Source: Candidatus Jordarchaeales archaeon (GTDB taxonomy: Archaea; Asgardarchaeota; Jordiarchaeia; Jordiarchaeales; Freyrarchaeaceae). From it: DNA of 32,000 nt. The position numbers and the translations under genes are program-made. The stretch lies in assembly GCA_038858525.1 (NCBI GenBank), contig JAWCFL010000001.1:170120-202119 (forward strand), given 5' to 3'. Below are positions 6,819-21,121 of the stretch, piece after piece. The notes beneath the pieces are model-generated. The model worked only from the letters and a program-made list of their open reading frames with translations, was not told where the DNA came from and did no database searches. Position 1 is the first letter of the stretch; each line of letters begins with the position of its first letter.

Positions 6819-7880
6819 ATGACGGTGATTTATGTGCCCAAGATCATTCCGCCGGAGGGTTTGAAAAGAAAGGTTATCGTTAAGAGTGAAGAGGAAACCA
6901 GTGAGGAGTACGGTAAACGTCCTAGCGAGAGGAGTGTGGAGGAGCTTTTAGAGGGGTGCTTCGTGAACATAGATAAGCCGGCAGGCCCGACCAGCCACGA
7001 AGTTTCTTCCTGGGTAAGGAGAATTTTGGGTTGCTCAAAAACTGGACATGCAGGGACACTAGAACCCCTTCAGACTTTGAAGGGGTGGTGAAATCCTAAG
7101 GTTACTGGGGTCTTGCCGGTTGCGGTAGGGTCTGCTACAAAGGTTATACAGGCCCTTCACCTTATAGGGAAAGAATACGTTTGCGTTATGAGGCTCCACG
7201 AGGATGTTGAGGGCGAAAGGATCAAGAAGATCTGTAAGGAGTTTACTGGGCCAATCTATCAGAGGCCGCCGATACGTTCCTCGGTGAAGCGAAGGCTTAG
7301 AGTAAGACGGATATATTACCTCGACGTGCTTGAGGTGGAAGGAAGAAATGTCCTGCTGAGAATAGGATGCGAGTCTGGGACGTACATAAGGAAGCTTTGC
7401 CACGACATAGGGGAGGCGTTAGGGTGCGGCGCTCACATGCGCGAGCTTAGAAGAACTCGAAGTGGACCTTTTACCGAGAGAAACATGGTAACGCTACACG
7501 ACTTAAAGGACGCCTATGTTTTTTGGAAGGAGGAGGGTGATGAAGCTCCCATCAGAAAAGTGTTATTACCAGTAGAGGAGGGAGTGCAGCACTTGCCCAA
7601 GTTTTTCGTGAGGGACTCAGCTGTTGACGCCATATGTCATGGAGCGGACTTAGCTGTTCCCGGCGTAGTCAAGCTTGAAGATGGAGTGGAGAAGGGTGAT
7701 GTGGTCGCGATCTTGACTCTTAAGGGTGAACTAGTCGCTCTGGGCGTTGCCCTGATGACCGTAGAGGAAGTTGTAAGAGAAAAGCGGGGAATAGCGGTTA
7801 AAACGACAAGAGTAATAATGAGCAAAGGAACTTACCCAAAACTCTGGAAAAGCAAGAAGAATAGCGGTTCAATCACGTAG
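6819..7880 (+). CDS. cbf5: H/ACA pseudouridine synthase Cbf5, join(6819..7062,7093..7880), 343 aa after splicing
   Basis: Two same-frame ORFs separated by TGA 7089-7091. Removing 7063-7092 restores [15 protein letters not shown] with the catalytic Asp. [25 protein letters not shown] and PUA domain present. Start could be GTG 6834. Confidence 0.95.
7063..7092 (+). other. BHB (tRNA-type) intron in cbf5, 30 nt
   Basis: Exon helix GGGA/UCCU; central helix CACU(7057-60)/GGUG(7087-90); bulges AG^A and AA^A; perfect 9-bp intron stem ACCCCUUCA/UGAAGGGGU with a GACUU loop. Confidence 0.96.
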
Positions 7881-13057: not shown

Positions 13058-13305
13058 GTTTTTCCGGATAGCGTTACGACGTCCCCTACAATCTTCATAC
13101 TTGCAAGTATATCATCCAGCGTCGACAGTAAAGTGCTGATCTTGCCGTTGTACTCGAGAAGCATGATTAACCTATTTTCGTCTGATTTCATTTCAAACTT
13201 CATGTTTTTAGGCAGAGGCGTGTTATCGGGCGACAACGCTCTCAATGTTATGGCGGCCTCGGAGGGGGAGGAAAATTCCACTTCAATAATTATTTTAGCC
13301 ATCAT
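13054..13305 (-). CDS. pcc1: KEOPS complex subunit Pcc1
   Basis: ALSPDN motif and STLLSTLDDIL C-terminal helix; conserved neighbourhood with rps3ae, DHH protein and rps15. Confidence 0.85.
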   Translation of the reverse strand: MMAKIIIEVEFSSPSEAAITLRALSPDNTPLPKNMKFEMKSDENRLIMLLEYNGKISTLLSTLDDILASMKIVGDVVTLSGKT

Positions 13306-15259: not shown

Positions 15260-15868
15260 TTAAATAATTTTCGAGGATGTTAGCCATTCAGCAAGCTTCC
15301 TGAGGGCTCTCGCCCTATGTGACAGCTTATTCTTTTCCCTAACGTCGAGCTCGGCAAAGCTCCTTCCATCACCCTCCTCAGGTATAAATATAGGGTCGAA
15401 ACCAAATCCACGTTCTCCCTTGACGGCGTGAGATATGAAGCCTGAAGCCTGACCTTTAAACACCAGCATCTCCTTGCCATCTGTGAACGCCACAACCGAA
15501 ACAAAAACAGCTCTCCTGTTATCGACGCCATCCATAAGTTTTAGCACGCCTTCATTGCCTATTTTGCTGAAGACATAGGAGGAATAAGGTCCTGGGAACC
15601 CGTTGAGCGCCTCTATGAAGAGGCCGGCGTCCTCAACGAAAAAAGGGCATCTTGGATTCGCCTCCCGCATCAGCCAAGCCAGACTAATCCTAGCGATCTC
15701 TTCCAAGCTTTCCGACTGGACCTCGAGGCGCTTCACGTCCCACTGTTCAACATTTAACCCGTACTCTGAAAAAACGATCTCAGCTTCTTGAAGCTTGTGC
15801 CTGTTACTTGTGGCGAAGAGGACATGTTTCACCTTTCCCAGTAGCGCCCCCTCCTTTCGATCTCCCAC
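15260..15868 (-). CDS. rdgB: XTP/dITP diphosphatase (Ham1/RdgB)
   Basis: FATSNRHK, EDAGLFIEALNGFPGPYS, GFGFDPIF and SHR motifs. True start may be a few codons downstream. Confidence 0.94.
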   Translation of the reverse strand: MGDRKEGALLGKVKHVLFATSNRHKLQEAEIVFSEYGLNVEQWDVKRLEVQSESLEEIARISLAWLMREANPRCPFFVEDAGLFIEALNGFPGPYSSYVFSKIGNEGVLKLMDGVDNRRAVFVSVVAFTDGKEMLVFKGQASGFISHAVKGERGFGFDPIFIPEEGDGRSFAELDVREKNKLSHRARALRKLAEWLTSSKII

Positions 15869-16455
15869 ATTTTATCTATAACTTCATTTGCCCCCTCAAA
15901 GGCGTCCCTATAACCTTGAAGAACAGCGTTGAATCCTTCTTCGAAAACGTCGTAATGACTGCTTTCCATTGCCCGCTTCATCAAGTGCAGGTCAACTCCC
16001 AAGTCCTCAACGTTCCTCGAAAAGTCTCCAAGCCCAAAATCGATGAAAAAAATCTTCCCGTTACTAACAATCATGTTTGAAGTTGTCAGGTCTCCGTGTA
16101 CTATGCCCTCCCTGTGAAGCCGCCCTATTAATTCGCCCACCTCACGCAACAACCTGACAAGTTCTTCGCGCGGCAAACCTCCTTCCTTTATGAGGTCACT
16201 TAAAGTTCTTCCATCAATGTAATCCATAATTATAGAGGCGGATTCTAAGTCGACGAGGTAAACTGTGGGCGCCGGGACGCCGGCTCTCTTTGCGCTATGA
16301 AGCAAGCGCGCCTCACGAATAACTCTCTGTCTTCTTAAGCTGTCATCCAGTTCCTTGATCCTGTAAAGCTTAGGCTTACGCTCCTTAACGACAACTCTTC
16401 GCCCAAAAACATGGCTAAGGAGAAGATGAGCTTCAGCCCCCTTCTTGATCATCAC
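15829..16455 (-). CDS. bud32: KEOPS kinase Bud32
   Basis: KGAEA, REARLL, HGDLTTSNM, IDFGL and VEDLGVDL motifs. Confidence 0.95.
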   Translation of the reverse strand: MMIKKGAEAHLLLSHVFGRRVVVKERKPKLYRIKELDDSLRRQRVIREARLLHSAKRAGVPAPTVYLVDLESASIIMDYIDGRTLSDLIKEGGLPREELVRLLREVGELIGRLHREGIVHGDLTTSNMIVSNGKIFFIDFGLGDFSRNVEDLGVDLHLMKRAMESSHYDVFEEGFNAVLQGYRDAFEGANEVIDKMWEIERRGRYWER

Positions 16456-16461
16456 CGTATC

Positions 16462-17492
16462 TCACCTCTCACTCTCAACCCATGATACTTGAACCTCGTC
16501 AAGCCTCCACCTCGGCTTCACGTAGCTTTCCTCCACCCTTAGGATCCTTCCACTAACATACTCTAATATTCCTGTCCAGGCGATCATTGCTCCATTATCT
16601 CCTGCCAACTGCTGGGGGACCACGTGGAAGGAGGCGCCATGCTCCTCAGCTATCACTCTGATCATTTCTTGCAACCTCCTGTTTCTGCCGACACCTCCCG
16701 TCAGTAGAACGTCACCTTTACGCGTGTGCGCCAGAGCCCTCTCAGTCACTTCAGCCAGCATGGAGAAGCAGACTTCCTGAACGCTGTAGCACAGATCTTC
16801 AACTTTGCAACTACCAATCTTGCCAACCGCAGCGGTGTAAACCCCAGAATAGGAGAGGTCCATTCCCTTGACGACATATGGCAGCGGAATAAAAGTGCTT
16901 CCTTTACTCGCCAGCTCTTCGACCTTTGGCCCGCCAGGATGCTTTAAACCCAGCGCCCTAGCGAGCATGTCAAGCATGTTTCCGATGGCCAAGTCAAGCG
17001 TCTCCCCAAAGACACGGTACCTGCCTTTCTCGTAAGCTGCAACCAGAGTGTTTCCTCCAGAAACATACAACGTTAAGGGGTCTTCAACGTTCTCGGTGAG
17101 ACGCCCAATTTCTATGTGGGCTAAACAGTGATTAACGCCCACTAAGGGAACGTTTAACGCCAGTGCAAGCGCTCTGGCAGCCGTCGCCACCGTTCTCAGG
17201 CAAGGGCCTTTGGGGGCTTCGCCAACCCCGGCCCTTGAGAGAACGCGACCAAGTTAACCTCACTTATTTTGATTCCGGCTTCGCTTATAGCTGAGGTGAT
17301 CGCCTGCTTAACCGCGTTCGAGTGGTGCTGCGCGGCTTCCCTAGGGTGGATCCCGCCCTCAGCGGGCACATACTCGTCTCTGATGTTCGCTAGAATTTCT
17401 CCTTCACTACTTGCCACTCCTACACCTAAAGTGTGAGCTGTTCCTTCGAGCCCCATGCATAGCAGGCGGCGGCCGCCCAGTGCCTTCCTCAC
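16462..17492 (-). CDS. kae1: t6A synthase Kae1 (TsaD), complement(join(16462..17209,17224..17492)), about 338 aa after splicing
   Basis: N-terminal LEGTAHT, GGIHPREAAQHH and FSQGPG are in one frame. ATAARALA, VNHCLAHIE, VSGGNT and GDNGAMIA are in another. Removing 17210-17223 gives FSQGPGLGPCLRTVATAAR. Start codon (GTG 17492) is uncertain. Confidence 0.93.
17210..17223 (-). other. Minimal BHB intron in kae1, 14 nt (GGCGAAGCCCCCAA)
   Basis: mRNA reads CAAGGGCC GGGG UU^G GC GAA GC CCCC AA^A GGCCCUUG: 8-bp exon helix, 4-bp G-C central helix, two 3-nt bulges and a 2-bp stem with a GAA loop. Confidence 0.94.
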
Positions 17493-17511
17493 AAGTCTCA
17501 GTGTAGCGCCA

Positions 17512-17712
17512 TCAGCCGCCTTCATCCTCCTTATCCTCATCCTCTCTTTTCTTTTCCTTAGCTTCCCTAACATACTCCGTGTATCCACACTTGCCGCAGG
17601 TGTAACGGCGCCAGTGCTCCGCCATGAAGACGCCTGGCCCACACCTGGGACAGAACTTTTTGGCGCGAACCAGTTGGCCATTGACGATCTTGTAGTATTT
17701 GCCAACGCTCAC
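17512..17712 (-). CDS. rps27ae: 30S ribosomal protein S27ae (eS31)
   Basis: YYKI...[29 protein letters not shown]; short acidic tail. Confidence 0.96.
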
Positions 17713-19439: not shown

Positions 19440-19853
19440 TTATAAAATTTCCCCATCAAGAAACAAACGTCTTCCCTGCCTTAGAAAGACCACAGGCACA
19501 CCAACCCGCCTGAGACGCCTACGAAGCTTGGCGTCATTAGTCGCCACAACACAACCCTCCCTCTTAGCATAATCGAAGACCGCGTCATCTACGCCCCCAC
19601 CCTCCACCCCCGATGGGCAAACCCTAAACCCTCTTACCTCAACGAGAGACAAGGCAGCCCTTGCCAGTTTCCCTCTCCTCCCACCCTTCTCAGCCAGCTT
19701 CATCAACTCATCAATAACCCGATCCAAAACAATAACCTCATAGCGCCCACCAATAACCCGACCAAGCTCTGAGAAGACATCCCATCCCAACAGAAACGGA
19801 GCAATCAAAAAGTTACTGTCAACTAAAACCCTAACATATGATCCCCCACCCAA
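19440..19853 (-). CDS. PIN-domain protein (Fcf1/Utp24-like)
   Basis: LVDSNFL, VIDEL, DD and VATND acidic PIN motifs; canonical position downstream of eif2g. Confidence 0.9.
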   Translation of the reverse strand: MGGGSYVRVLVDSNFLIAPFLLGWDVFSELGRVIGGRYEVIVLDRVIDELMKLAEKGGRRGKLARAALSLVEVRGFRVCPSGVEGGGVDDAVFDYAKREGCVVATNDAKLRRRLRRVGVPVVFLRQGRRLFLDGEIL

Positions 19854-21121
19854 TAAGCCTCCACCTTCCCGAAACCATCCTGCTCACAGCCACCCTCTGA
19901 CCATCCTCAGCACACACAGGACGCCGCAGCGCCACTTCAACCTCCCCACTCCTAATCGACGATACAACGCCCACTGTCACCGCCGACCCAACATTCAGCA
20001 TTAAAGCCTCATTAACACGCACATTCTCCACCCTGGAAAGCTCCTCGCTTCCCACAACCCTATCCATCAGGTGAAGCTCAATACACAAATCCTCACGCAC
20101 GGGAGGAAGGGTCCCGGGAGAACCTACAACGTTCCCAATCAAACCATCAGCCTTCGTCAAAGAGGGGTCCAGCCGCGTACCAACACCAATCAACCCACCT
20201 GGCAAAGCTTCCTCAAGCCACACGTCACCAGCATGCAAACTTACAACGTCAGCATAAATAGGCTCAAACTTACCTTTAACAGCAACTCCCGGACGAATTT
20301 CAACCTCATCCCCAACCCTAACTCTACCTTGAATAATGGTTCCACCAATAACGCCCCCAACAAGATCCTCAGGCCTAGTTCCCGGCTTATTCACATCAAA
20401 TGACCTCGCCACATACATCCTCAAAGGCTTACCCGGGTCTCTAACCGGATTAGGAATATGCTCTTCCATGAACTGCAACAAAGCATCCAAATTAACACCA
20501 AAAACAGCCGAAACAGGAACAATAGGAGCATCCTCAGCAAAACTACCACCAATAAACCTCTTAATCTGTCTAAAGTTTTCTAATGCCTTCTCCCTAGAAA
20601 CAAGCTCAACCTTATTCTGAACAATAACAACATTCCTCACACCAATAATCTCCAAAGCCGCAAAGTGCTCTCTAGTCTGCGGCTGAGGGCAAAACTCATT
20701 AGCAGCAACAACAAAAACACAACCATCCATCAAAGACGCACCACTAATCATGGTCGCCATTAACCGCTCATGACCAGGACTATCCACAAAGCTGACCTTC
20801 CTCACAAACTCAGCTTCACTCCCACACTTAGGGCACTTCCACCCCCCAGCCATAGCCAAAGTAAAGTAGCAGTCAGGAGGCGGGCAAGATGGACACTTCA
20901 AAATAATAGCATCAGCATAACCCAACTTAATCGTAATACCACGACGCTTCTCCTCACTATGACGATCAGTCCACACACCAGCCAAAGCCTGCACAAGCGT
21001 GGTTCTTGGCCCGCGAGAGAGACACTCCCAACGGATTGCCATGATCCACGTCTCTAGCACCAGCTGATCAACAGCTGGCGAGTCCAGCTGTTCCCACAGA
21101 AACTAAAGCCTGCGTACTCAT
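19831..21121 (-). CDS. eif2g: Translation initiation factor 2 gamma subunit (aIF2-gamma), complement(join(19831..21004,21036..21051,21082..21121)), 409 aa after splicing
   Basis: The ORF-track protein lacks the P-loop. Removing two inserts gives [61 protein letters not shown], NKVE and RWRLIGWG motifs are downstream. Confidence 0.94.
21005..21035 (-). other. BHB intron 2 in eif2g, 31 nt
   Basis: Central helix UGGC/GCCA (4 Watson-Crick pairs); bulges AA^U and AG^A; intron stem CCGU-U-GGGAG/CUCUC-GCGG. Splicing restores the P-loop Lys codon (AA+A). Confidence 0.92.
21052..21081 (-). other. BHB intron 1 in eif2g, 30 nt
   Basis: Central helix CUGG/CUAG; bulges AC^U and AG^A; 9-bp stem CGCCAGCUG/CAGCUGGUG with a UUGAU loop; in-frame TGA at 21070-21068. 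Splicing restores the His codon (C+AC). Confidence 0.92.

Follow-up and report, generated by a model that had tools for sequence, protein, structure and literature searches.

A predicted 14-nucleotide bulge-helix-bulge intron in the coding sequence of kae1 in a Jordarchaeales archaeon

How could a full-length Kae1 protein be obtained from a gene whose reading frame is broken in two? This question is raised by a stretch of 32,000 nucleotides from a Candidatus Jordarchaeales archaeon, hereafter termed the window, in which kae1, an essential and universal gene for tRNA modification, appears as two separate entries in the list of open reading frames (ORFs), with the frame of its N-terminal part stopping at 17196 and its C-terminal part extending over 16462-17190. 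The properties of the locus and of its relatives suggest, with a probability that we place at about 0.9, that the kae1 coding sequence holds a genuine archaeal intron of the bulge-helix-bulge (BHB) type. The kae1 mRNA would almost certainly be cut and rejoined by the enzymes of tRNA splicing, and we infer from sequence comparison both that cleavage and ligation act on this mRNA and that they do so at the phosphodiester bonds described below.

The interrupted gene and its splice motif

The excision of nucleotides 17210-17223 converts the two pieces into a single Kae1 frame of 326 amino acids, which reads ...AFSQGPGLGPCLRTVATAAR..., joins TT with A and rebuilds QGPGL|GPCLR, with the Pfam TsaD profile running on across the junction. 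The conceptually spliced gene contains no other stop and no other frameshift. Its junction would be GGGGUUAGGCCC, and the form GGGCCGGGGTTAGGCCCTTGC does not occur in the DNA. Three codons are candidates for the start of the gene (ATG 17525, GTG 17492 and ATG 17456). The parts of the locus are as follows:

17201 to 17237, minus strand: complete hBHBh' splice motif, defined by the sequence, the RNAalifold consensus and the pair counts
17210 to 17223, minus strand: predicted intron of 14 nucleotides (GGCGAAGCCCCCAA on the coding strand), whose excision rebuilds the Kae1 frame and whose position is shared, to the nucleotide, by orthologous inserts in 18 other sequences
17224 to 17525, minus strand: kae1 exon 1, with the TT of a Leu codon as last bases, covering Pfam TsaD positions 2-63
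16462 to 17209, minus strand: kae1 exon 2, whose first base A completes TTA (Leu), followed by GPCLRTVATAAR... to the stop, covering Pfam TsaD positions 70-264 (E 4e-59)

On the minus strand, the segment 17237 to 17201 reads CAAGGGCC-GGGG-UUG-GCGAAGC-CCCC-AAA-GGCCCUUG, in exact agreement with the sequence and coordinates that had been proposed for a BHB in an earlier note on this stretch. The motif is composed of an exon helix of 8 bp, a central helix of four G-C pairs, an intron hairpin of 2 bp closed by a loop of 3 nucleotides and two bulges of 3 nucleotides each, which are located on opposite strands (UU|G and AA|A). From 5' to 3', exon helix, central helix, bulge, intron hairpin, central helix, bulge and exon helix follow each other as they do in tRNA introns, in the canonical order h-H-B-h'-H-B-h. 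With a cut placed between the second and third nucleotides of each bulge, the joined exons yield the TT+A codon and the repair of GPGLGPCLR that the earlier note had anticipated, and the unspliced reading leaves the Kae1 frame, as had also been claimed, to end 8 codons later. The near-minimal geometry ascribed to the intron is correct if a strict hBHBh' motif is considered, where 14 nucleotides are the minimum with an h' helix of 2 bp and a loop of 3 nucleotides; the insert in one congener comprises 13 nucleotides. Since the literature searched gave no value for the shortest intron of archaea, the term minimal refers to geometry only. The intron hairpin GCGAAGC (17214-17220, minus strand), which we take to be the sequence of a mini-hairpin that is unusually stable in DNA, differs in congeners, where GCGGAGC, GGAAGC and GAGAACC are found instead.

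The gene is present in a single copy in the genome, a metagenome-assembled genome of 2.09 Mb that is distributed over 63 contigs and 92.7% complete, with the other match to the kae1 family, in a frame of 775 amino acids, being read as HypF. Both exons are under strong purifying selection, as reflected in ratios of nonsynonymous to synonymous substitution (dN/dS) relative to congeners of 0.06-0.08 for exon 1 and 0.02-0.04 for exon 2. These values bear on the explanation that the break marks a pseudogene or an artefact of assembly or sequencing, which draws some support from the origin of the sequence in a 63-contig metagenome-assembled genome and from the kae1 gene of genome G008, which does hold a scaffolding artefact elsewhere. 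A decayed gene, which the earlier note had already doubted, is contradicted by dN/dS values far below 1 in both exons of the sole kae1 copy. An artefact is at odds with the recurrence of the insert in independent genomes, two of which (G006 and G011) consist of a single contig, and with the presence of an identical C-terminal protein on 17 contigs of NCBI, Logan and ENA assemblies, whose independence implies that the break in kae1 is not an assembly error. We thus regard this explanation as highly improbable.

Inserts at the same site in relatives and covariation of the motif

The same split, at TsaD profile position 63/64, is shared by every genome sampled from four Asgard families and is absent from all of the approximately 370 other Asgard genomes with a match. 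It is carried by every sampled genome of the genus and family of the window (G001-G004), by the members of a sister family (G005-G009), which include Candidatus Jordarchaeum madagascariense, and by two further families, f3 (G011, G022, G032 and G312) and f32 (G309-G311). At NCBI, the matching proteins bear the names 'Candidatus Jordarchaeales' for the genus itself, 'Jordarchaeaceae' for the sister family and 'Candidatus Odinarchaeota' for f3. A fifth insert-bearing lineage was found in a JGI metagenome, and one further f32-like sequence stems from a Logan assembly. In total, 19 distinct sequences from five lineages have an insert at the same nucleotide, invariably between the second and third bases of the Leu codon. 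Within the family of the window, the inserts are 14, 14, 14, 13 and 14 nucleotides long, compared to 28-29 nucleotides in Jordarchaeum, 26, 28, 30 and 32 nucleotides in Odinarchaeota and 25 nucleotides in f32 and the JGI lineage. The eight lengths (13, 14, 25, 26, 28, 29, 30 and 32 nucleotides) cover every class modulo 3, and the insert of 30 nucleotides is in frame and contains two TAA stops. The same cut rule rebuilds the frame in 19/19 sequences across all of these lengths.

The distribution of lengths bears directly on the possibility that the ribosome itself passes the 14 nucleotides by programmed frameshifting or bypassing. The insert of kae1 is short and forms a hairpin, properties that it shares with known bypass elements. 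It should also be considered that the introns of cbf5 were first confused with frameshifting (PMC2738675). Frameshifting had been named in the earlier note as the alternative that would undermine splicing, and it is contradicted by orthologous inserts of 13-32 nucleotides, which would require corrections of 0, +1 and +2 modulo 3 and, in case of the in-frame insert, the passage of two stop codons. The length classes and the in-frame stops thus fit an excision and cannot be explained by a ribosomal frameshift. No slippery heptamer was seen in the kae1 sequence, and the conserved arrangement of two bulges of 3 nucleotides at a distance of exactly 4 bp is a signature of the splicing endonuclease EndA rather than a frameshift signal. 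A ribosomal route therefore appears extremely unlikely.

Evidence for an RNA structure was obtained from covariation in an alignment of the 19 sequences, for which a structure with 14 pairs was specified. The BHB fold is paired in 97.7% of cells, and its covariation score of 0.506 compares to 0.198 in shuffled alignments, with 0/500 shuffles reaching the observed value. Sliding the 3' partners by 1-3 columns lowers the pairing to 30-57%, and RNAalifold, run without a supplied structure, returned an identical hBHBh' dot-bracket. Compensatory changes on both sides were observed in 6/14 pairs and 49 cells, with switches of this kind found even within single genera. The exon helix of 8 bp is paired in 97.4% of cells and the central helix in 98.7%, with the first pair of the latter occurring as G-C, G-U, C-G and A-U, and the first two pairs of h', both with changes on both sides, are paired in 97.3%. 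Two pairs of the exon helix, the most informative ones of the motif, are variable and occur as G-C, C-G, U-A, A-U, U-G and G-U. Both coincide with synonymous third positions of two Gly codons, and they are formed together in 14/17 intron-bearing but only in 7/68 intron-less kae1 genes, counts that overstate independence since the sequences are related. The difference implies that the synonymous sites are held to pairing only where the insert is present.

The same observations have to be weighed against the proposal that kae1 is a split gene in these organisms, where an N-terminal piece of at least 86 amino acids and a C-terminal piece of 242 amino acids would be translated apart and assembled without splicing of RNA. 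Split genes are known in some archaea, and gene callers do assign a start to the C-terminal part, a GTG at the V of RTVATAAR. The starts called in this way are, on the other hand, not homologous between lineages (MATAAR, MRTVAT, MRTTAT, VPLVGV, MGVNHC, MLKGPC, VFAPKG and MPKGPC), and the break is located inside the invariant GPGLGPCLR motif. Separate translation would moreover predict neither a conserved BHB with six compensatory pairs nor a pairing of synonymous sites that is confined to interrupted genes, which renders a split gene very unlikely, if slightly less remote than the two explanations considered above.

Several observations weigh against an intron. In a strict scan for motifs with an outer helix of 8 bp, a central helix of 4 bp and an inner helix of at least 2 bp, allowing G-U pairs and inserts of 14-40 nucleotides, we found 216 sites in the real genome compared to 143-166 in Markov-simulated genomes, equivalent to a frequency of BHB-like motifs of about 1.4e-6 per position and length. 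With an enrichment over simulated sequence of only about 1.4 times, the presence of a BHB-shaped motif is weak evidence, and its shape alone proves little. In addition, folding of the isolated 49-mer gave a register-shifted hairpin of -25.9 kcal/mol as the structure of minimum free energy, compared to -20.4 kcal/mol for the BHB conformer at 37 C, and the nearest-neighbour model favours the former by 3-5 kcal/mol. Finally, the inner helix comprises just 2 bp in the window and its genus, and it is degraded in two relatives, G003 with its insert of 13 nucleotides and G004 with an A-C mismatch. What cannot be chance, in contrast, is the location of the motif at the one position, and with the one length, that repairs a universally conserved protein motif, combined with a covariation that is kept in relatives.

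Not every interruption of kae1 encountered in this comparison was of the same type. In G008, a run of N with duplicated flanks (L041 940-1090) was rejected as an intron and assigned to a scaffolding artefact, and the break in G018 was rejected as a single-base frameshift in an A-rich run (L042 1300-1440). P0068 has the appearance of a truncated Kae1, but its locus is uninterrupted at the intron site. A separate set of short N-terminal Kae1 products in public assemblies (P0137, P0173, P0175, P0178 and P0192) continues into unrelated tails, such as GPGLLFALLQNLFHQL and GPGLGFPLKGLV, right after GPGL or GPGLG. These products suggest that there may be more variants of the intron, possibly at a neighbouring position, in lineages outside the sample.

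Splicing machinery and a predicted route to Kae1

The processing of such an intron would depend on the enzymes that act on tRNA, candidates for which are encoded in the genome. Two paralogs of EndA were identified, together with the RNA ligase RtcB (E 5e-181):

Contig 3, 81835-82089, minus strand, and contig 43, 5978-6235, plus strand: the two EndA paralogs of genome G000, of which one is alpha-like and the other beta-like

One of the paralogs, a protein of 191 amino acids, has its best match in the catalytic alpha chain of the Aeropyrum pernix heterotetramer (3p1z_B, E 1.6e-48), with a gap-free alignment across the N-terminal loop region, and inspection by eye indicates that Tyr, His and Lys are kept in the aligned region. 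In the second, of 198 amino acids, the catalytic His is, by the same inspection, apparently absent, and the protein looks like a structural beta subunit. Together, both sequences suggest an (alpha-beta)2 enzyme, which is the form of EndA that has been assigned to Asgard archaea, where it contains a loop conferring broad specificity (PMC5829648). In genomes of the class Jordarchaeia, most tRNA genes are reported to be interrupted, with a heavy load of non-canonical introns (PMC11291895; bioRxiv 10.64898/2026.10.13.758758). In the 2.09 Mb of the genome studied here, the tRNA genes recognized by ARAGORN number only about 14, and introns at unusual positions occur in most of these. It is likely that the tRNA genes of this genome are interrupted to a high degree and that most of them escaped the program.

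On this basis, the following sequence of events can be proposed. In the pre-mRNA, the exon helix would arise by pairing of the codons for Q-G-P (CAAGGGCC) with those for G-P-C (GGCCCUUG), and the next four exon bases, GGGG, would pair with CCCC of the intron to give the central helix of 4 bp. The predicted alpha/beta EndA, equipped with a loop that broadens its specificity, would then cleave each bulge behind its second nucleotide (UU|G and AA|A). RtcB would ligate the exons, and the product would contain a UUA codon for Leu within the reading frame ...QGPGLGPCLR.... In an unspliced transcript, translation would stop 8 codons into the wrong frame and no full-length Kae1 would be made, and hence there would be no synthesis of t6A (N6-threonylcarbamoyladenosine) by KEOPS.

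The spliced product was sought in assembled data rather than in reads, and with the expression level of kae1 not known. Neither the exact junction pattern of 32 nucleotides nor a degenerate pattern of 41 nucleotides, which allows for synonymous variation at the level of the genus, had a match in metagenome contigs. Among proteins of 133-424 amino acids, the search with the C-terminal part returned only unspliced products of 240-244 amino acids for the genus, and the search with exon 1 among proteins of 44-140 amino acids returned only read-through tails such as GPGLAKPPKALA; no junction-spanning Kae1 product of the genus is contained in the protein collection.

As to the origin of the intron, the hairpins of the different lineage groups resemble each other in sequence only in their constrained parts, and in a quick maximum-likelihood tree of 86 Kae1 sequences three groups contain the intron-bearing rows. 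Concerning a single or a repeated gain, one origin may fit the tree. The site is predisposed, because the GGN-CC codons of its two Gly-Pro pairs are nearly self-complementary. It is possible, if on balance rather unlikely, that the kae1 intron is old and vertically inherited, that it predates the split of Jordarchaeia, Odinarchaeia and their relatives and that it belongs to a large set of mRNA introns processed by EndA in these Asgard archaea. If this were the case, protein-only splicing of mRNA, including that of essential translation factors, would be routine in close prokaryotic relatives of eukaryotes, and production of the t6A enzyme would require, and could be tuned by, the capacity for tRNA splicing.

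Relation to known introns and neighbouring genes

In the literature searched, cbf5 is the one archaeal gene in which introns of the coding sequence are documented to be excised by the enzymes of tRNA splicing (PMC2738675, PMC7714728), and kae1 is not mentioned. In cbf5 of Crenarchaeota, the BHB intron is confirmed and its splicing was demonstrated experimentally (Watanabe 2002; Yokobori 2009, PMC2738675). The two cases are alike in that a short BHB intron interrupts the coding gene of an RNA-modification enzyme inside a conserved motif of its catalytic region, in their removal, predicted for kae1, by the tRNA-splicing machinery and in their presence in some lineages and absence in others. They differ in the host gene, in the phylum, which is Asgard rather than Crenarchaeota, and in the length of 13-14 nucleotides near the structural minimum, and splicing is proven for cbf5, whereas for kae1 it is predicted; the window also contains a cbf5 insert of its own.

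A close resemblance exists to the non-canonical hBHBh' introns of archaeal tRNAs, with which the kae1 motif shares the geometry, the cut positions and the predicted processing by EndA and RtcB. In kae1, however, the part of the motif contributed by the exons consists of codons, and structure and coding would thus be selected together via synonymous third positions. Another mRNA intron of the BHB type is found in the 5' untranslated region of HVO_1309 of Haloferax volcanii (PMC7714728). Both transcripts would be substrates of the archaeal splicing endonuclease, but in kae1 the intron is located in the coding sequence, where its removal would be required for the protein, and in HVO_1309 it resides in an untranslated leader. 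In eukaryotes, HAC1/XBP1 offers a parallel for a protein-only splicing of mRNA that shifts the frame and is followed by ligation by a tRNA ligase, which in metazoa is RtcB (PMC4090602). There, a pair of stem-loops is cut by Ire1 in a process regulated by stress, whereas kae1 lacks any sign of regulation.

As a second host gene, universal and essential, with inserts in at least five Asgard lineages and a record of compensatory evolution, kae1 would indicate that mRNA splicing of this kind is not the curiosity of one gene. Standard annotation cuts such genes short or drops them, as reflected in public records that list a 'hypothetical protein' or a TsaD of 240 amino acids. The kae1 introns of 13-14 nucleotides would offer natural minimal substrates for defining the requirements of (alpha-beta)2 EndA, and an exon half made of codons would provide a clean case of selection acting on an RNA structure and a protein sequence at once.

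The genes adjacent to kae1 in the window are the following:

15829 to 16455, minus strand: bud32, an intact RIO-type kinase and KEOPS partner directly downstream of kae1, with Pfam Pkinase and RIO1 matches
17512 to 17712, minus strand: rpS27ae-like gene directly upstream of kae1, from the ORF list, with an orthologous neighbour annotated as PF01599

The order S24e-S27ae-kae1-bud32-ham1 recurs in relatives. The KEOPS context emphasized in the earlier note is borne out by bud32 and, at a distance of about 4 kb from kae1, by a Pcc1-like ORF (13162-13287), with a stronger match to Pcc1 being located on contig 21. The ORF list holds no additional ORF beside kae1 and no adjacent gene for a LAGLIDADG homing endonuclease, bud32 being the one flanking ORF that was scanned with Pfam, and with S27ae ending at 17512 and kae1 beginning at 17456-17525, there is no room for an endonuclease gene in between.

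Two other genes of the window attract attention. The ORF of aIF2-gamma (19831-21060, minus strand) has a nonsense N-terminus and is without the GHVDHGKT P-loop in the ORF list. The cbf5 gene contains a BHB insert of 30 nucleotides with an in-frame TGA (7053-7102, plus strand), located between GHAGTL and PKVTGVLPV, which has a hairpin of 9 bp, a CACU/GGUG central helix and the bulges AGA and AAA, and whose excision rebuilds the GAT (Asp) codon of GTLDPK at the site GTL-D|PK.
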